Assembly (NCBI GenBank): GCA_014799575.1
Contig: JAAVHS010000015.1
Coordinates: 143,570-207,569 of the forward strand
Length of the DNA stretch: 64,000 nucleotides
Direction: 5' to 3'
Source: Clostridiales bacterium
GTDB lineage: Bacteria; Bacillota; Clostridia; Christensenellales; UBA3700
Shown piece after piece: positions 11,033 through 50,090 of this stretch; the stretch's first letter is position 1, and every line of letters begins with the position of its first letter. A program made the position numbers and the translations under genes. The notes below the pieces were generated by a model that worked only from the letters and a program-made list of their open reading frames with translations, ran no database searches and was not told the origin of the DNA.

Positions 11033-11623
11033 TTACATCATAGCCGTATAAGCCGAAGAGTGCTTTTCCATTTTGTTAAACAAATTTCCAAACTCGTCAT
11101 TACACGAATCTCGCATTTCTTTCAACACCTCTGCTAATTCATCTCCATAGAATCCACCGCAAGAATCTATTTCTTCGCCTTGTTCGTCTATAATCTTAAA
11201 AGCGTAACAATCGCCTTGTAGGTATTGGTCATACATTTTCACTTCGCCAATTAACCTTTCACGAATAGTTGTCTCTAATCTTTCATCTAACTCGCAATGA
11301 TATTCTTTCTTCGCTTGTTCTTTTGTAACGTAAATATAGCCAACTTGTCCGCTATCAAATCTATCCCCAAAATCGCAAGTAGATATTGTTATTCCAGAAT
11401 GGTCATATAGATAGAGCGGCAAAATCACAAAAGCATTTTTGTATTCTTTGCTTTCTTGAAACTCTCTTGGATTTCCATAGCCGTGCTTATCTCCGAGCAT
11501 ATATCTTCTATGCCAACAAACCATTTTTCCAAGATTGTCCCAAGTGCGTGGACTTTCTGCAAACTCATCTCTATATACTTCCAATTTGTATTTACCGTCT
11601 CCTACCGTTATTAAATCTTCCAT
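11033..11623 (-). CDS. Hypothetical protein
   Basis: 196-aa ORF in the operon. No motif I can name. Confidence 0.55.
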   Translation of the reverse strand: MEDLITVGDGKYKLEVYRDEFAESPRTWDNLGKMVCWHRRYMLGDKHGYGNPREFQESKEYKNAFVILPLYLYDHSGITISTCDFGDRFDSGQVGYIYVTKEQAKKEYHCELDERLETTIRERLIGEVKMYDQYLQGDCYAFKIIDEQGEEIDSCGGFYGDELAEVLKEMRDSCNDEFGNLFNKMEKHSSAYTAMM

Positions 11624-11633
11624 AATTCTCCTC

Positions 11634-12623
11634 TTACATTTCAGCTCTACTGTGCGTTACACTCAATGCCATATTGATCGTTCTTCTCCCATAATATCCA
11701 CCGCTGTTATCCCACTTAGGTCTATACAAGCCACTTGAACGGAAAATACTATCTATCTGGGATTCGTCTTGCGTCCAATACGCTAATATACTTGCAAGTG
11801 CAAAATCTGCTGAACTTTGTGTATCGTAACTACCTTGCCAATCACCGCGGAATAATCTATCAAACTTTGTCCCTTGCCTACTACTTCTTATGCGTTCAAC
11901 AAGTTCTCTATCGGACATTGTGGCCGGTGTACGTGCAATGGGTTTGTATTCTATCGGCTTGCCTAAATAAGTTTCATTTAACTCGCCAATTATGTCGGAT
12001 AAATCTTTTACTTCTGTTGTCTCTCCAACAATGTTACCAGTCATACATACAAATCTTTTGGTATCATACATTTCAAGTCCAAAAGTATCATTCTTCTTCC
12101 TCGCATTTTCAGGCAACTTTCCATAACAAAGAAAATGTAATCCTTTCCCACTTACCGAAGTTTCACAATATGTATCAAGTCTTGACGCTAGTTCAATTGT
12201 TTTTTCTTTTACTATGTCTGGCTTCTCATCTACTTCATCAATATCCACAAATACAATCCCGCTTGTTAACACAAAGCTCAACCCATCTTGTCCGTGCGTT
12301 TGCGCATATCTTAATGCCGTATCGAAATCGCTCCATGTTGTTGGCTCATTGCTTTTGGCAAAGTCGCCCGTAATGGGCGAAATCATAATCTTACCCCAAT
12401 GACCTTCTTGCGGTTTTGCTTTGAAACACACCCATTGCCGTAATCTCTTTAATTCGTCAGGTACGTTCTCAAGCTGCTTCCATTTCCGAATGCTTGGCTT
12501 TCCCTTCGCGAAACGGCTCTTCGGCAGTCTCACACCCACCGCCAGTGGCGGTAGGTGTGGGCGCTGCTTGCGCCCTTGCTTGTTGATCCTTATAAAACGC
12601 ACGTGAAATCTTGTCCATAACAA
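11634..12623 (-). CDS. PrimPol / P4-type primase-like protein (start uncertain)
   Basis: WVCFKAKPQ..GK..SP..G..AKSNEPTTWSDFDTA, GLSFVLTSGIVFVDIDEV and SADFALASILAYWTQDESQIDSIFRSSGLYRPKW are typical of bifunctional primase-polymerase / plasmid primases. The first ~50 codons (TTG start in the ORF track) overlap the ArdC-like gene. Confidence 0.65.
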   Translation of the reverse strand: MLWTRFHVRFIRINKQGRKQRPHLPPLAVGVRLPKSRFAKGKPSIRKWKQLENVPDELKRLRQWVCFKAKPQEGHWGKIMISPITGDFAKSNEPTTWSDFDTALRYAQTHGQDGLSFVLTSGIVFVDIDEVDEKPDIVKEKTIELASRLDTYCETSVSGKGLHFLCYGKLPENARKKNDTFGLEMYDTKRFVCMTGNIVGETTEVKDLSDIIGELNETYLGKPIEYKPIARTPATMSDRELVERIRSSRQGTKFDRLFRGDWQGSYDTQSSADFALASILAYWTQDESQIDSIFRSSGLYRPKWDNSGGYYGRRTINMALSVTHSRAEM

Positions 12624-13494
12624 GTTTCGTGCTTGCGCAAATAAGGTTGAGATTATCGCGGAAAAGTCCCGTTTGTTCTTCGTTCATATTTTGAATATAA
12701 TCAAAGTTAAAACCGCTCGTATCAAGACCGAAATGCGACGCAAGAATACATGCTCTACTGTCCGCTTCAATCTTTTCTGCGTTCTCGCCGGTCATACCTT
12801 CAAAGCCTCTTCCTTTATAGTTGTCGTTTATTGCCTTGCTTGCCGCTTCTATCGCAGTCAAAACCGTGGTAGTGTTATCCATTCCCTTACATATCTTAAT
12901 GGTTTTCTTCGCTTTGTCGATTTTATAGTTTTCATTCTGCGCGAACTCGGATTCGTCCGTAAACTTATATTTCCAATGCTTTGCAGACAAAGCCGAAAAT
13001 ACACCGTCAAGGATATTTTTTTTCTCTACGTCCGACACTTTCTTGCCAATTTTATAAGGCTTGTAATCCTCGCCTTCCGTTGCAGAAATATCGAATACGT
13101 ACACAGCATGGAATCCGTCAGTTCTTTCGCGGGTATGAACAATCTCTTTACCTTCTGCGTCAAGTTTCGGTTGATTATTCTCGTCTTTCTCTATTACTTC
13201 ATACTCGACTTTGGTAGGCGCAGTAATTTCCATACTCTTTGCACCCTCTTTGATATGTCTGCCGTCTCTTACCCATTCATTCATACCTTTCACAACCGTT
13301 ATCTCTGGGTTTTGGTCAAGCATGAGAAGAATATTGTTTACAGAATACTTGCTATTCTTACCGCATTTCAAAAGCAAATCTTTGTACTTGCCATCTGCTA
13401 TAATCTTCTTGTATTGCTCTTCGATTCTGTTATTGATTGCTTCTCTTTCTTCGTCCGTGTAGTTATTAACTACTTTTACATTCTTATCTTCCAT
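12469..13494 (-). CDS. ArdC-like ssDNA-binding / anti-restriction protein (N-terminal domain only recognised)
   Basis: 341 aa. KYSVNNILLMLDQNPEITVVKGMNEWVRDGRHIKEGAKSMEI and VYVFDISATEG match the ArdC-N pattern and the N-terminus of the 1935-aa protein. Confidence 0.7.
   Translation of the reverse strand: MEDKNVKVVNNYTDEEREAINNRIEEQYKKIIADGKYKDLLLKCGKNSKYSVNNILLMLDQNPEITVVKGMNEWVRDGRHIKEGAKSMEITAPTKVEYEVIEKDENNQPKLDAEGKEIVHTRERTDGFHAVYVFDISATEGEDYKPYKIGKKVSDVEKKNILDGVFSALSAKHWKYKFTDESEFAQNENYKIDKAKKTIKICKGMDNTTTVLTAIEAASKAINDNYKGRGFEGMTGENAEKIEADSRACILASHFGLDTSGFNFDYIQNMNEEQTGLFRDNLNLICASTKLVMDKISRAFYKDQQARAQAAPTPTATGGGCETAEEPFREGKAKHSEMEAA
12531..12575. other. Two adjacent GC-rich hairpins inside the ArdC-like/primase gene overlap
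   Basis: cacacccaccgcc-agt-ggcggtaggtgtg (13-bp stem, 1 mismatch) followed directly by gggcgc-tgctt-gcgccc. A GC island in AT-rich DNA. Confidence 0.7.
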
Positions 13495-13555
13495 TTTTTA
13501 TTCTCCTAATAATTTAATATATTTGTTTGTTGTTATTTGATATATAGGAACACAC

Positions 13556-14350
13556 CTATTCCATTTCATCTTCATAGACGTAATCGTATGTACCTGTTTT
13601 CTCATTGAACTGAAATTCATCTTCGCCACCCCAAAGTTCAAAATACTTTTCATAAGCCTCTTTGCTATACGGATCATATTCAGTAGCACTTGTAATTTTT
13701 CCGTTCTCATATTCACATTGTCCCGCAAAATATCCCGCGCATTCTTCTGCATACTCATATTCAAACTTGCACTTAGGGTGCAATTCTGAAAGTTTCCGAA
13801 TTAAATTCATCACTCTACTCCATGCAGTATCAAAGTACAACTTTGCAGTATTTAAGTCTGGAACTTCCGTATTATGCGCGTTCCATTTAGTGCCCCAATT
13901 ATTGCAGTGCCACGTATACCAATCGACTGCGCCATATTTCTTAAAGTTGTCTACAGCTTGTTTTCCCAATGCTAAAATGCTGTTCTCATCTTTATTCTTA
14001 CTTTGCATATTTTTGAGTTTTTCAGCGATTTCTTCTTGCGACATTGCAAAACACGGTTTAGCCTTTAACATGGATTGCGGTATCTTATTACACAAATCTA
14101 TGTACTCTTCAACGGGTATCTTCTCTGTACCGTAATAATTAATAAGCGGATTAATTGATGTGAGATAAATATCAATTGCTTCATACGTTTCTCCTCCTGC
14201 GTCAATATCCAACTCTTCTGGCATTGGAATTATTTTATTGAAATCAAAGTCATATTCGCCATCTATGTCATTCTTTACAAGATATGACTTCATTATTTCT
14301 ACCGCATTATCTCCACTTATCGTTAAACGATTTCTAACCCAATTAGGCAT
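13556..14350 (-). CDS. MPNW-start protein (DUF1281/Api92-like ferredoxin-fold family, tentative)
   Basis: 264 aa. MPNWVRNRLTISG, IIPMPEEL, NWGTKWNA, FDTAW. Confidence 0.55.
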   Translation of the reverse strand: MPNWVRNRLTISGDNAVEIMKSYLVKNDIDGEYDFDFNKIIPMPEELDIDAGGETYEAIDIYLTSINPLINYYGTEKIPVEEYIDLCNKIPQSMLKAKPCFAMSQEEIAEKLKNMQSKNKDENSILALGKQAVDNFKKYGAVDWYTWHCNNWGTKWNAHNTEVPDLNTAKLYFDTAWSRVMNLIRKLSELHPKCKFEYEYAEECAGYFAGQCEYENGKITSATEYDPYSKEAYEKYFELWGGEDEFQFNEKTGTYDYVYEDEME

Positions 14351-14377
14351 TATCTTATTCCTCCTTTTCTTTTTTTC

Positions 14378-14944
14378 TTACGCACAAATATTTACGTCAT
14401 TTCCCCAACAATCCCACCCACCTGCACTTTGTCTTGCAAACAATTCAATTCTTGGCACATCTCCAAACAACTCCACAATGCGGTCTCTTACTTCGTCAGG
14501 CTTCTTGCTATGCTCTTGAATTGGAGATATTATGCAACTTGATACACTATTGCTTATAGGCTTCATCTTTCCTTTAATACCCATAAGGCAAATTTCACAG
14601 TTACTTTTTGCATAATATCCTATACCGAAGAAAGGCTTGCTGTTTTTCTTATTTGTCTTTACCCAACTAAAACCTAACGTCGTATATCGAAATCCCCAAC
14701 TCTCAAACAATTTTATTTGCTCGTTTAAATATGGAAATGTTACCCACAAGAACAATACACAGTTGTCTGCCGCTATCTTTGGAATGGGCAAGTTTGCTAT
14801 ATCTTGCATTGTCATTAAATCATAATGTCCGTATGCGCCTTTTCCAAATTTAGTTTTGGGATTATTGCGCTTGTTGTATTTCCACGGCGGATCAGCGTAA
14901 ATGATATTGTATCTTTTGTCAGTTTCATATATGTTTGTAAACAT
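14378..14944 (-). CDS. MT-A70 family N6-adenine DNA methyltransferase, orphan
   Basis: 188 aa. IIYADPPWKY (DPPW catalytic motif), followed by FLWVT and WGF blocks typical of MT-A70. Confidence 0.85.
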   Translation of the reverse strand: MFTNIYETDKRYNIIYADPPWKYNKRNNPKTKFGKGAYGHYDLMTMQDIANLPIPKIAADNCVLFLWVTFPYLNEQIKLFESWGFRYTTLGFSWVKTNKKNSKPFFGIGYYAKSNCEICLMGIKGKMKPISNSVSSCIISPIQEHSKKPDEVRDRIVELFGDVPRIELFARQSAGGWDCWGNDVNICA

Positions 14945-14953
14945 TGTGCCTCT

Positions 14954-15202
14954 CTACATTTCTACCGTATTTTTAATTTCTTTGCAGTTATCAATTTCTT
15001 CCAAGCAATCAAGAAAATCGCATAAGAATTGAGCGCACCAAACTAATTCATTTTCCTCAATTTCGCCATTCTCAAATTTTTCAAGCACATCACCCAAATA
15101 ATTCTTGTGAACATTGTAGACCTCTTTGAAATCGTCAAGTGACCACCCTATGCTTTCCATTTTGTCAAATGTCGCTTGCAGTATCTTCTTTTCATTTTTC
15201 AT
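14954..15202 (-). CDS. Hypothetical protein
   Basis: 82-aa acidic ORF between the VirB4 and MT-A70 genes. Confidence 0.45.
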   Translation of the reverse strand: MKNEKKILQATFDKMESIGWSLDDFKEVYNVHKNYLGDVLEKFENGEIEENELVWCAQFLCDFLDCLEEIDNCKEIKNTVEM

Positions 15203-47400: not shown

Positions 47401-49978
47401 CCGTATATTCCGTTTCTTCTCCGTCTCCAATTACGTATCCCCATACGATAGCCGACGCATCTACCTTGGCTTTTGCTATGCTCCAAGAAAGCGTAGTCGG
47501 GAAGTTGGGCGCATTGTAATTCTTGGTATCGTAAGAGAACGTAATACGCGCGGTATAGTCGTTGCCCGCATTGGTTTCTTCGTGACCTATTACGCTTATG
47601 CTCAAGCCGTTTATACTGTCCTTACCGACAAGCGTCAACGTATGCGCCGTATTATCATACGTCATCGGATCAATTTCATTGTTGCTTGCATCCAACCACT
47701 TGTTTTGGTCGAAATCATATGTAGCCGCAACGTTGCCGTGTGTATACTGCCATTTGAGTCCGCTCACGTCAAAGTCGGCTTTGATTATCTCGAAATTAAA
47801 TTCCAAACATCCGCTGTCAATATAGTTATCCTCTGCTTTATCGCTATTAAGTACGACTTCTATTCTGTACTTACCCACTTCCGTAGGTTCGCCAATAATA
47901 GGACTAGTAGCTCCGTCCTTGTAGTAATGAAGCGTGATATCTTGCGCTCCTACTCCGCCATCGGCTTGAAGTATCTCTATACTAGGCGAGTATGCGCTAC
48001 CTGTGTATGACAACTGTTTGTCTTGGATATTCTCGCCATTCCATTGCAATTCCAACTTGACAACGAATTTATCCTTACCAATGACGAACGTGTATTCTGC
48101 CGTATCGCCTGTCGATAACTTATAATTCCCGCTATACGCTGTCTTGAGCGTAGCCACTACCCTATACGTGGTCTCTTCTGTTACTTCATCAGGACTCGGC
48201 AACGTGGTAACTTGTTCGCTGCCTTTATAATAAGTATAGTCTACCATGTTCGCTTGTGGAAGATTGTTAAGCGTAGGCCACGTGTATTGAGTCACGTTTC
48301 CGTTGTTGTCATTCTTCCAACTTACGCTGATTGTCGCTTGGATTATCTTCCAACTTACAGAAAATTCGAAGTCATCGCCTATATAAGAAGTCTTATCACT
48401 CGCAATAGGTACGATATAATTATTCACGTAATCTGACGTTATACTAAACGTAACGGTCGTGGTATAGTCGCCCACGGGCGTTTTACTTCTGTCGCCTGTA
48501 TACGTCGCTGTCAAACCTGCGGGCAATACGCCTTGCAATTCCATGCTTTGCGGAGATCCGTTGTATTCTAATTGTTTTACGCTAGGCCAACTCAATCCCG
48601 TCAAATTGTACTTCGCCTTATCTATGCGATAAGACAAAGTATATTGCTTGGTGTAAGTCTCGTAAGTGTTGTCTAAATTCGTTAAATGAACTGTGACTGA
48701 ATATAGCGACGTACTAGCGTTTGTTGCGCTAATATTTCCGCTATATCCGCCCGTAGTACCACTCTTGGTCGTGTCTATCTTGACGCCGTGCGAAGCAAGT
48801 ACGCTGTCGTCTATGCTAAACGTATACGGACTGCCTGTGTATACAACTGAATAATTCGTAGGATAGCCTATTGAAATACTATTGCACAACCAATCAATAT
48901 CTGTGTCTTGTAGCGTAATACCTACTCCGCTGACGTGGAATACCAACGTCTTTGGCGTAGACAACGTGTAATTGCCGTTGGCATTACTACTGCTTGCGTT
49001 AGCCTTTTCGACGTATATCGTATAGTCGCCTTTGGCAATGCCCGTCGGCATTGTTATAGTAGTTGTCTTACCGCTTACTACTTTAATGGTATTGATTTCA
49101 TCGTACTTTGTGCCTGTACCTATACTGTTATTTATATAATATATCTTTAATTCTATTGTATCATTAGTATATGAATCTTCCGTTATCGTTACGGTAGGTT
49201 GAACTCCGTAATTCCAAGTATTGTTGTTTGCATCGCAACTTATTGTGATGCCCAACGCTTTTGGATTTATTGTCACAGGCAATGAAAAACTATCCGTTCC
49301 ACCGCTCGACCACACCATTGAGCTTTTCTCGACTAGCGAAAACGTGACGTAATAAGTACCCGCGTCTTTGACTTTCAATTTACCGTCTTTCAACTCTAAT
49401 ACGCCATCTTTTAACTCTAATATATTATTGTCTTTTTTGATATTATCGATTTTAACGTCATCGCTCAATCCGTTGATGGTAAATTCTTGCAGTTCGCCGT
49501 TATACGACAAAGTATTCGACCCTATGGTCGGCTTTGTCACGGGTTTTGCGGTAATCGAAAGGTCAGGCGTTGCTTTGCAAGTACCTTTCAATTCATAGTT
49601 ATTGTTTGGGTTCATCGTCGCTGTGACGGTATACGTACCTACCGCAGTGGGATATTGGGTATATGTTTCGCCCGTTAAATTGTTTTTGTAAGTAATAGTA
49701 AACGTCGGCGCTCGATCTCCTGTATCGCTGTCGTATATCTTATTGGCGTCAGGGTCGTTGGCAACGACTATAGGCGTGACGGTATAACCTCCGCCGCTCG
49801 ACGTAGGTTTTATCTCACATTCTATAGGTTTTTTCTTGATTGTAAATGTAAATTTTCGAGTTGTAGCGTCTTCACCTTTGCTTACATCGGGGTCGCCTTT
49901 GAACGTAAATTCCGGGTCTTCTTGTAATTTCTGGTCAGAAATCTTCGCCGTCACTGTATAAGTGCCGGCGTCTTTCAT
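44468..49978 (-). CDS. MBG-repeat surface protein, distal part of the DGR target. The frame stays open upstream to 50209.
   Basis: 1836 aa as listed. Repeated AGTY(T/Y)VT...YNG MBG-type units, a TM helix (LWQLIASFISIILIIVFL plus a second helix), and a cytoplasmic tail with EKVVEVPV repeats. No signal peptide and no clear RBS at the listed ATG. Confidence 0.7.
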   Translation of the reverse strand: MKDAGTYTVTAKISDQKLQEDPEFTFKGDPDVSKGEDATTRKFTFTIKKKPIECEIKPTSSGGGYTVTPIVVANDPDANKIYDSDTGDRAPTFTITYKNNLTGETYTQYPTAVGTYTVTATMNPNNNYELKGTCKATPDLSITAKPVTKPTIGSNTLSYNGELQEFTINGLSDDVKIDNIKKDNNILELKDGVLELKDGKLKVKDAGTYYVTFSLVEKSSMVWSSGGTDSFSLPVTINPKALGITISCDANNNTWNYGVQPTVTITEDSYTNDTIELKIYYINNSIGTGTKYDEINTIKVVSGKTTTITMPTGIAKGDYTIYVEKANASSSNANGNYTLSTPKTLVFHVSGVGITLQDTDIDWLCNSISIGYPTNYSVVYTGSPYTFSIDDSVLASHGVKIDTTKSGTTGGYSGNISATNASTSLYSVTVHLTNLDNTYETYTKQYTLSYRIDKAKYNLTGLSWPSVKQLEYNGSPQSMELQGVLPAGLTATYTGDRSKTPVGDYTTTVTFSITSDYVNNYIVPIASDKTSYIGDDFEFSVSWKIIQATISVSWKNDNNGNVTQYTWPTLNNLPQANMVDYTYYKGSEQVTTLPSPDEVTEETTYRVVATLKTAYSGNYKLSTGDTAEYTFVIGKDKFVVKLELQWNGENIQDKQLSYTGSAYSPSIEILQADGGVGAQDITLHYYKDGATSPIIGEPTEVGKYRIEVVLNSDKAEDNYIDSGCLEFNFEIIKADFDVSGLKWQYTHGNVAATYDFDQNKWLDASNNEIDPMTYDNTAHTLTLVGKDSINGLSISVIGHEETNAGNDYTARITFSYDTKNYNAPNFPTTLSWSIAKAKVDASAIVWGYVIGDGEETEYTGALPYTRASGREASYTVGLINVPEILKDYISYNSGERTQSKVGNYSIQYALADLGSNYETVVMPSSLQTRLNWSISVKILPTPVFDKSWTVFDGEVHDFAQMFGITEEGWENYMTITITKDGSAFDGLDGDAYKAIKAGEYTVVFDLLDYDNIDWQDGVWPAASTLVRVKAYEINLEWQGNNTNATAVLDDWVKSYVDYRYKDSDGNILANGIRDMETGVPYFKELFAKDGYEDDIKIYGEPKTVLRPGSSASIVKPVFDTNKKITYDGNPHTIEEFLRSGDEMPTGVKFEILDGNLTDAGEYTIRISLEDEEIFCWDDEDGTTDSYTVTVKIEKATITQNRLNWTTDEESGLPKLSVRGNSDIEFTYTYYDEDGYELTLAEIADGVEVAKVVAKLNNSNYAMIDASNSVVEEVTYAPNEDDNKDPNSGDQSGENPPNNNEGGGLFGGSLEEILEKLKEIPLWQLIASFISIILIIVFLSKTAKYDGERKKFNKKASKLESMYAGAFLGVAMSIWTAIACVLIVMAVVSFVMMLIAKSRRNKAEEEYEDHLDEYNRNKADFDEKKRDENMRMMLMGMMGGNAGGAGAQGGFAYQQGLTADDMRGLISETVTAMLPGMQQMLPQQASTNDEMVQKLIDQNEKLMKQLAEKPSETANNDVFVQKLMEQNAQNEERLRKLNEQTERRVEKLMQQLVEMPAEREVASANISEETLEKLVNKLQPISSNISDETILKVVTQSGQNDETIKQMLKNQELLMAKILELSANQNNQPQVVEKVVEVPVEKVVEKVVEVPVEKIVEKEVVKEVPIEVEKVVEKVVEVPVEKVVEKQVIKEVKVAAAPKPKKEVAPRLTLDEAYATLSKEQKKYFDGLRDYALSKDKCKEKKSTYFVVFGPNTANPLLKLTIKKDTVVALYKMEDEYMKDIRRNATSDGSKIKVKETELIVADAQAFGTAKDMIDLREDQIERYADYLKEQKAMNRR
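44905..45092 (-). repeat. In-frame tandem repeat encoding (V/I)VEKVVEVPVEK units
   Basis: Protein VVEKVVEVPVEKVVEKVVEVPVEKIVEKEVVKEVPIEVEKVVEKVVEVPVEKVVEKQV. The corresponding DNA units recur with small changes. Confidence 0.7.
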
Positions 49979-50090
49979 ATCCGACGGATATGAAAGAGTT
50001 ATGACGTCATTGTTAAACCACTTTTTCTGCTCTGCCGATATATTTGCGATTGTCTGAATGTCGCCGTTATATACGGATTCTACATCCGTC

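Follow-up and report, generated by a model that had tools for sequence, protein, structure and literature searches.

How the second gene of an adjacent pair is translated is the question raised by one locus in a 64,000-nucleotide (nt) stretch of DNA from a Clostridiales bacterium (contig JAAVHS010000015.1), which we call the window and to which all coordinates refer. Both genes lie on the minus strand. The upstream gene encodes an ArdC-like protein and the downstream gene a primase-polymerase, whose reading frame is +1 relative to the ArdC-like open reading frame (ORF) and is formally free of stops as far back as a TTG at 12623; a preliminary description of the locus, made from the sequence alone, had given this offset, the open frame and the end of the ArdC-like gene at 12469, and we confirmed them. 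It had also stated that no ATG or GTG with a ribosome-binding site precedes the primase core. As it held, there was no ATG in the primase frame between TTG 12623 and the conserved core. However, it had overlooked two in-frame GTGs (12539-12537 and 12533-12531), the sole canonical starts in the 50 codons before the core, both of which lie within the 3' arm of a GC-rich hairpin (hairpin 2 in Table 1), behind a Shine-Dalgarno (SD)-like GGCGGUG (anti-SD duplex, -8.0 kcal/mol). Comparison with relatives revealed a conserved gene pair whose downstream enzyme has no fixed start codon, which is more than an annotation glitch. The ribosome is predicted to undergo a programmed +1 frameshift at CCG_UUU_CGC, shortly before the ArdC-like gene ends, and so to produce a 619-amino-acid (aa) ArdC-primase fusion; we give this reading about an even chance of being correct.

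Relatives were retrieved from ENA, NCBI, JGI and Logan assemblies with three queries: the two proteins, ArdC and primase, and an alignment of the primase. These relatives were metagenome-assembled genomes of Christensenellaceae and other Clostridia and provided 27 distinct junction sequences from independent metagenomes, with ArdC identities of 49 to 98%; the most distant relative, L029, has a different layout and stands outside the 27. The +1 placement of the primase relative to ArdC was kept in every one of these junctions. Taken alone, a frame offset of 1 nt in one window that lacks a start codon could pass for an indel introduced by sequencing or assembly, or for a once-fused gene decaying into a pseudogene, as the preliminary description had considered. 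However, the offset was identical in 27 junctions drawn from all these assembly sources, and the primase is under purifying selection; error or decay is therefore excluded with near certainty. The comparison of homologues that the description had proposed (fused or separate genes) likewise argued against a once-fused gene: ArdC and the primase lay in separate frames, and no in-frame fused homologue was found among 150 cluster representatives or 130 close clusters. A conceptual ArdC-primase fusion used as a query returned half-length matches only, and all 120 close primase clusters listed were 210 to 303 aa long. An internal primase domain was present in a few representatives (P0031, P0032, P0058 and P0083), whose N-terminal parts were unrelated. 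Plasmid and phage collections held no near-identical DNA, and scans of IMG/VR with the primase protein and with the primase alignment found no relatives.

We numbered the primase codons backwards, with negative numbers, starting at the Glu codon that shares bases with the ArdC UGA. The preliminary description had put the overlap of the two genes at 155 nt and had placed the hairpins inside it. Neither statement was borne out: primase-frame stops occurred in the relatives at codons -18, -19, -21, -23 and -24, and codons -17 to -1 were free of in-frame stops in 27/27 junctions. These sequences suggest that only about the last 17 codons (about 51 nt or less), rather than the full 155 nt, are kept open. 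The conserved primase protein starts with E-N-[VI]-P-x-E-L, exactly at the Glu (GAR) codon overlapping the ArdC stop, and stand-alone primase homologues start just 5 to 8 residues ahead of the NIP motif; the real overlap is therefore about 45 to 50 nt, with the hairpins upstream of it. Within this overlap, ArdC codons -9 to -1 showed no third-position changes in 12 sequences of the window's clade, compared with about one per site elsewhere, as is expected where two frames are read. Downstream of the UGA, changes at primase codon positions 3, 1 and 2 numbered 29, 11 and 10, respectively. The ArdC gene ended in NNU_UGA_R in all 27 overlapping junctions, while TGA serves as the stop of only 2 of the 32 long ORFs of the window.

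No start codon is shared by these junctions. Ten of the 27 had no ATG, GTG or TTG in primase codons -13 to -1, compared with a chance expectation for such absence of 0.50 (background of 5.3% per codon, taken from the +1 frame of ArdC genes), and where start codons were present they were scattered over positions -13, -12, -11, -10, -7, -4 and -2. L010 had no canonical start from an in-frame TAG at -21 to +30, nor had L036 from a TAG at -18 to +52, and in L037 and L038 none occurred before +28 and +13, respectively. Among sequence clusters at 57% identity or more, 28 of 51 were called as N-terminally truncated, and the other 23 start 13 to 31 aa before the QW motif. In contrast, 67 of 69 more distant stand-alone primases start 14 to 17 aa before QW, and only 2 were called truncated. 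Gene callers thus shorten the primase in roughly one of every two clusters of the family, and current annotations are accordingly wrong at this junction. Between L008 and L010, synonymous and non-synonymous codon differences numbered 9 and 3 in the first 28 codons and 51 and 20 in the rest of the primase. The start-less N terminus of the primase is therefore under purifying selection as strong as that on the rest of the gene, and the primase family of this clade has lost any fixed start codon.

A conserved start with an SD sequence, of the kind found in canonical coupled genes, was seen neither in the window nor in its clade. It was found in two sister lineages, L029 (SD GAGAGGAG, -8.3 kcal/mol, and an ATG in an ATGA overlap) and the L022 group (GGAG, -6.4 kcal/mol, and an ATG at codon -10), which have ordinary primase starts; ATG was also present at -10 or -11 in L033, L013 and L032. 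Since L029 and the L022 group combine SD and ATG with the absence of hairpins, the start-less state belongs to the window's clade and not to all relatives. The preliminary description had counted homologues with an independent primase start and no hairpins against its proposals; such homologues exist in these sister lineages.

We hypothesized that the primase is reached by a change of frame within the upstream gene. In this model, a small fraction of the ribosomes on the ArdC-like gene would slip +1 near its end. Peptidyl-tRNA-Phe would re-pair from UUU (12513-12511) to UUC (12512-12510), and GCG would be read next. The shifted product would comprise ArdC residues 1-328, then AKGKPSIRKWKQL, then the 278-aa primase-polymerase, 619 aa in all, with AQAAPTPTATGGGCETAEEPFAK as the predicted junction peptide. 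Ribosomes that had not shifted would stop 13 codons later at the UGA and release the 341-aa ArdC-like protein. The conserved overlap would be read in both frames, and the fusion would give the primase an N-terminal "header", the ArdC-N domain that binds single-stranded DNA (ssDNA).

Table 1. Features of the ArdC-primase junction, in window coordinates
Feature	Coordinates	Strand	Description
ArdC-like gene	13494..12469	-	341 aa; ends GCA GCU UGA, stop UGA at 12471-12469
Hairpin 1	12575..12559	-	GGGCGC-AAGCA-GCGCCC; encodes conserved peptide R-A-Q-A-A-P
Hairpin 2	12559..12531	-	(C)ACACCUACCGCC-ACU-GGCGGUGGGUGU(G); 12-13 bp including one G.U
Candidate +1 shift site CCG_UUU_CGC	12516..12508	-	UUU 12513-12511, 14 codons before ArdC stop
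Conserved overlap	12513..12469	-	last 14 ArdC codons and stop; primase frame encodes F-AKGKPSIRKWKQL-E
Elements of possible separate initiation	12507..12489	-	SD-like GAAGGGAA 12507-12500 and AUU 12491-12489; anti-SD duplex -5.6 kcal/mol
ArdC gene end GCU_UGA_G, alternative +1 site	12474..12468	-	primase Glu codon starts with the GA of the stop UGA
Conserved primase-polymerase coding region	12470..11634	-	from GAG codon overlapping ArdC UGA to its own stop

Codons of the form UUU_Ynn are prone to +1 shifting in bacteria (PMC5009743). A conserved Phe, part of a [DE]-[PS]-F motif, occupies ArdC codon -14, and UUU_Y occurred at ArdC codons -13 to -15 in 23/27 junctions, including the window (12513-12510). 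At the proposed site, where the window reads CCG_UUU_CGC, four relatives (L011, L012, L013 and L014) have UCC_UUU_CGU. This nonamer matches the shift cassette of influenza A PA-X exactly and in the same frame (PMC5009743), although that cassette acts on the eukaryotic ribosome with a rare CGU, and both CGU and CGC are only moderately rare here. Other versions of the site were CCC_UUU_UGU (L020 and L035), UUU_CAA (L015, L016 and L017) and UUU_CAG (L037). Three of the exceptions to UUU_Y were L022-type junctions (UUU_G), which have their own SD and ATG at -10, and another was L033 (UUC_C), with an ATG at -10. An SD-like run was located 3 nt upstream of the UUU in L001 (-7.8 kcal/mol), L036 (-7.3), L023 (-6.5) and L034 (-5.9), while only 8% of background positions reach an anti-SD duplex of -5 kcal/mol. 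Primase-frame stops came within 4 to 5 codons upstream of the UUU and never after it, and the combination of open codons at -17 to -1 with stops only at -18 to -24 fits a shift at the UUU of codon -14. The preliminary description had listed an ArdC-N-primase fusion made by frameshifting as one of three options; with 27 conserved +1 junctions and no conserved start, it is the best supported of the three, as a prediction. From the conserved layout, the absence of a conserved start, the selection on the primase N terminus and the slippery motif in most relatives, all of which are observed, we infer the ribosomal shift itself, its codon and its frequency.

Slippage during transcription was rejected for the window, which has no homopolymer longer than T3 at this place. 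In L032 (2440-2530; 75% ArdC identity), the homologous position is occupied by a T7 run, GAA TTT TTT TGC, long enough for transcriptional slippage too, and the ATG at -11 of this relative lacks an SD sequence.

Several observations weigh against a frameshift at UUU_C. Sister lineages clearly make a separate primase, and no natural in-frame ArdC-primase fusion was found in the family. The window itself has the in-frame GUG with its SD-like sequence at -21, and a GUG was present at -13 in 8 of the 14 window-clade junctions examined. The conservation of UUU is weak evidence, since UUU is the preferred Phe codon in any case (75%), and the openness of codons -17 to -14 follows in part automatically from the conserved Asp/Glu-Pro-Phe codons. 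Counts of synonymous and non-synonymous changes by frame over codons -20 to -10 included few changes and did not tell the frames apart at -13 to -10. At the site itself, the SD-like run of the window, GAAGAG, is weak (-2.1 kcal/mol), and the A-site codon CGC is a minor Arg codon in the window (3.8 per 1000) but only a moderately rare one. The hairpins end 17 to 23 nt upstream of the UUU (17 nt for hairpin 2), too far away to match the upstream hairpins for which a stimulation of +1 shifting on the 70S ribosome has been demonstrated and which adjoin the E site (PMC6321510). Lastly, L038 has neither UUU_Y nor Phe at -14, and no start codon, and would need to shift at GGG_AAA_A or UUU_UGA.

The sister lineages are also a ground for considering that the primase is made separately, initiated within the 3' end of ArdC at a lineage-variable or non-canonical start and coupled to ArdC translation. 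This is a possible explanation, which we hold to be tentative. L029 and the L022 group start in this way, and L033, L013 and L032 have an ATG, while stand-alone relatives begin 5 to 8 residues ahead of the NIP motif. In the window, one start could be the GUG at 12533-12531 with GGCGGUG, locked in hairpin 2 and exposed when the ArdC ribosome melts it; the anti-SD-like 5' arm and SD-like 3' arm of this hairpin are the usual design of a hairpin that masks a ribosome-binding site. A second option is the AUU at primase codon -7, behind GAAGGGAA. The anti-SD duplexes are -8.0 kcal/mol at the first site (GUG -21) and -5.6 kcal/mol at the second. However, no candidate start was conserved even inside the window's clade. 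In L014-type and L008-type members, an in-frame TAG separates GUG -21 from the primase, and GUG -13, varying as an ordinary sense codon does (Val/Ala), is replaced by GCG, GUC or GUU in the window, L001, L008, L010, L020, L034 and L035; neither GUG was therefore accepted as a general start. AUU -7 alternates with GUU (L008, L010, L013, L034 and L035), an Ile/Val change typical of an internal codon, and was rejected as a general answer in the manner of the infC start; moreover, GAAGGGAA is missing in five sub-lineages. L010, L036, L037 and L038 lack any canonical start and nonetheless have conserved N termini, the frequency and position of start codons match chance, and a GC stem of 12 to 13 bp with a 3-nt loop would refold very fast behind the ribosome.

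Alternatively, the ribosome could shift +1 when it reaches the ArdC stop, as on prfB mRNA: GCU would occupy the P site and a slowly decoded UGA the A site, and GAG would be read in the +1 frame. We consider this improbable. The resulting fusion would read ...SEMEAA-ENVPDEL..., and its junction peptide would be MEAAENVPDELK, where the UUU_C shift would give EEPFAK. NNU_UGA_R is the sole motif common to all 27 overlapping junctions, UGA is rare as a stop codon in the element, and the conserved primase protein starts exactly at the GAR codon overlapping the stop. The tail of the ArdC frame, [ED]-[MILF]-E-[AVC]-[AVSF], is moreover kept more conservatively than the primase-frame peptide on the same bases, and L038 (UUU_UGA_A) and L017 (GUU_UGA_A) would re-pair well in the +1 frame. 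On the other hand, tRNA-Ala on GCU is unable to re-pair on CUU in the window, and no SD-like element adjoins the stop (-3.3 kcal/mol). A prfB-type site, CUU_UGA with an SD-like sequence 3 nt upstream, was thus not found at GCU_UGA_G, as the preliminary description had correctly noted, although it had not seen the likelier UUU_C site 14 codons upstream. NNU_UGA_R is equally kept in lineages with their own ATG, and two-frame coding (Ala/Val-stop over Leu-Glu) accounts for it. A shift at the stop also leaves the 17 stop-free upstream codons of the primase frame and the frozen third positions of ArdC codons -9 to -1 unexplained, and these two features led us to downgrade it; L038 keeps it alive. 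The ArdC gene of L038 (1380-1420) ends in GCC_UUU_UGA_A, which comes close to an ideal +1 site of the prfB type, and the codon at which the shift occurs may differ from lineage to lineage.

The hairpins upstream of the overlap were examined for their own sake. The preliminary description had reported a GC island made of two abutting hairpins at 12531-12575, and both the fold and the GC profile confirmed it: GC content is 0.63 to 0.65 at the hairpins and 0.30 to 0.48 around them, and a 201-nt fold reached -71 kcal/mol (z = -3.95 against dinucleotide shuffles). Against synonymous-codon resampling that kept the ArdC peptide, the fold had z = -4.76, and none of 300 resamples was as stable; the structure thus exceeds what the Pro/Thr/Ala/Gly linker encoded here would give alone. 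Stability above synonymous resampling was seen in the window, L004 and L008. In hairpin 1, 90.9% of cells pair over 11 clade sequences, with no covariation, and a hairpin of different sequence stands at the same place in L015, L017, L023 and L036. Hairpin 2 has a C-rich 5' arm and a G-rich 3' arm and is kept across the window's clade with differing sequences, for example, CACUCCUGCCGCU/AGCGGUGGGAGUG in L004 and GACCCU-CCGCCG/CGGCGG-AGGGUU in L008. Three of its pairs change on both sides, and its covariation was 0.118 compared with 0.068 in shuffles (3/500 reach 0.118), in an ungapped alignment in which the register of several members is wrong. In L015 and L017, this position is occupied by two hairpins of unrelated sequence (GGCAGGCGCG...CGCGCCUGCC and CCCC-UUCG-GGGG). 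However, hairpins were absent from L016, L022, L033, L037 and L038, and L023 and L036 have hairpin 1 only. Since the lineages without hairpins keep the overlap, the hairpins are not required for the layout.

The third option of the preliminary description was that the hairpins are a DNA-level signal. A primase single-strand initiation site or an oriT-like repeat would suit a conjugative element with a VirB4-like ATPase next door and the primase gene directly downstream, and on the plus strand, 12559-12575 followed by TTGCTTGTTG has a weak terminator-like pattern, as for an antisense terminator unrelated to primase translation. We found no support for a signal of this kind and regard the whole set of explanations as very unlikely. 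Hairpin 2 retains G.U pairs, which are A.C mismatches on the opposite strand; the conservation of these pairs places the structure on the sense strand and points to mRNA. The hairpins are lost in L016, L022, L033, L037 and L038, all of which retain both genes; the rest of the window contains no more copies of the arm sequence than chance would give; and the covariance models of Rfam 15 gave no match at E <=1 over 11500-13600 on either strand. The antisense terminator was rejected, as its T-rich tail is the complement of conserved Gln-Gln codons and is less T-rich in the relatives. An intrinsic terminator on the sense strand was not found either, there being no U-tract where hairpin 2 is followed by AGACUGCCGAAG. 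An alternative pairing of the 5' arm of hairpin 2 with GGCAAUGGGUGUG (12439-12427), about 100 nt away, is not kept in L004 and is probably due to chance. At the same positions (12427-12439, minus strand), GGCAATGGGTGTG encodes the invariant R-Q-W-V-C of the primase and has two mismatches to the 3' arm of hairpin 2.

With low confidence, we suggest that the hairpins may be a clade-specific translational modulator, which would mask the SD-like run and the in-frame GUG or would tune the change of frame. The most far-reaching version of the frameshift proposal, in which the primase is made only by an obligatory +1 shift and the hairpins are a new 5' modulator that sets the ratio of ArdC to ArdC-primase across a family of conjugative elements of gut Christensenellaceae and other Clostridia, is doubtful.

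The arrangement was compared with known cases of recoding. In Yersinia, ribosomes that shift +1 about 15 codons ahead of the stop of yopN produce a YopN-TyeA hybrid (PMC4914553, PMC5009743). The shift proposed here resembles it in the overlap of the adjacent genes, in its position at a U run some 14 to 15 codons before the upstream stop (PMC4914553, PMC5009743) and in a product that would join neighboring proteins and accompany the unshifted upstream protein. Unlike the primase of the window's clade, however, tyeA has its own SD sequence and start, and separate TyeA is the main product; the biology is also unrelated, being type III secretion there and conjugation here. FseA, the activator of the Mesorhizobium symbiosis integrative and conjugative element (msi172-msi171), is the product of +1 frameshifting on a UUU codon close to where the upstream ORF ends (PMC5009743). 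The UUU shift codon would be common to both systems, but FseA is a transcriptional activator that limits excision, whereas the product here would be an enzyme with a DNA-binding header, and no conserved Trp-Gly nascent-peptide motif was seen at this junction. Escherichia coli prfB (CUU_UGA_C, with an SD-like sequence 3 nt upstream) shares with the ArdC end the +1 direction and the UGA that ends the zero frame, and in L001, L023 and L036 the proposed slip codon is preceded at 3 nt by an SD-like run, as in prfB. In contrast to prfB, the P-site GCU of the window cannot re-pair and has no SD sequence, no autoregulatory logic is apparent, and the likelier site is not a stop.

The predicted product also has a counterpart among fused proteins. 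In RP4 TraC1, an ArdC-N domain is joined to a primase in one polypeptide (PMC7213743, PMC5512222). Like TraC1 and the polyvalent proteins with an ArdC-N header, the fusion would combine an N-terminal ssDNA-binding ArdC-N domain with a primase in a conjugative element. However, TraC1 is encoded by a single in-frame gene and has a Toprim primase and an active metallopeptidase (MPTase), while the primase here is of the AEP/PrimPol type, the MPTase motif is lost and the join would need recoding. L029 provides the contrasting case of an ordinary ATGA-type coupled overlap, with ArdC ending in ...SPELA before the stop, ATGA, a primase that begins MSFYPENIP and a strong SD sequence. The overlap of the window differs from it in frame (+1, not -1) and in having no conserved start or SD sequence.

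The identities of the two proteins were assessed from domain and structure matches. The ArdC-like protein gave a weak domain match to Pfam ArdcN (PF08401; 23.9 bits against a cut-off of 22.6, residues 25-115) and was 30% identical to the ArdC-N/MPTase protein P0024, aligned over about 300 residues. It comprises the ssDNA-binding ArdC-N domain, a degenerate metallopeptidase region and the Pro/Thr/Ala/Gly linker, and its C-terminal tail, ...SEMEAA before the stop, is the same in 19/19 homologues of 341 to 367 aa. The HExxH zinc site is absent: IEAASK aligns with IHEVAH of P0024 (about residues 205-260), and the protein is probably a catalytically dead MPTase. The downstream protein matched Pfam NrS1-1_pol-like_HBD (PF22763) with E = 3.8e-20 and the Protein Data Bank structures 7OLA, 6A9W and 6K9A with E values of about 1e-31 to 1e-32. 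The primase alignment (A1) has invariant positions at P4, E6, L7, Q12, W13, V14, C15, D76, D78 and H112, and the AEP motifs DxD and sGKGxH are invariant (D76 and D78; S107, G108, K109, G110 and H112). By these matches and motifs, the protein is classed as an AEP/PrimPol primase-polymerase with an NrS-1-type helix-bundle domain. NCBIfam gave no matches.

Neighboring genes encode a VirB4-like ATPase and orphan methyltransferases, and the locus is the establishment or anti-defense part of a conjugative element. The slot between the VirB4-like and ArdC-like genes (13556-15202 in the window) varies among the window, L001, L004, L032, L034 and L035, in which it contains DUF1281_C with one MT-A70 methyltransferase, two MT-A70 methyltransferases, a PAPS-reductase-like protein, or YodL with DUF3846. 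It looks like a site for swappable anti-defense cassettes. Gene orientation in the window is one-sided, with 32 ORFs of at least 150 aa on the minus strand and 2 on the plus strand, and there are five giant ORFs (1935, 1836, 1653, 1653 and 1201 aa) and no tRNA genes. The two 1653-aa ORFs were considered as paralogues and found not to be paralogous. The start of the 1836-aa ORF carries, at 49971-49997, an inverted repeat whose 13-nt arms match perfectly and are 1 nt apart (TCTTTCATATCCG/CGGATATGAAAGA).

To our knowledge, well-supported programmed +1 frameshifts in bacteria are few, namely, prfB, YopN-TyeA, FseA and some phage genes. If the frameshift proposed here takes place, it would be a case that is widespread in gut conjugative elements, and the relatives would offer a natural series of sites for comparison, from UUU_CGY through UUU_UGU and UUU_CAA to lineages back to an ordinary start. 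It would also show that gene fusion is not the only route by which a primase can acquire an ArdC-N header, recoding being another, and it would bear on the delivery of establishment proteins together with the transferred strand.

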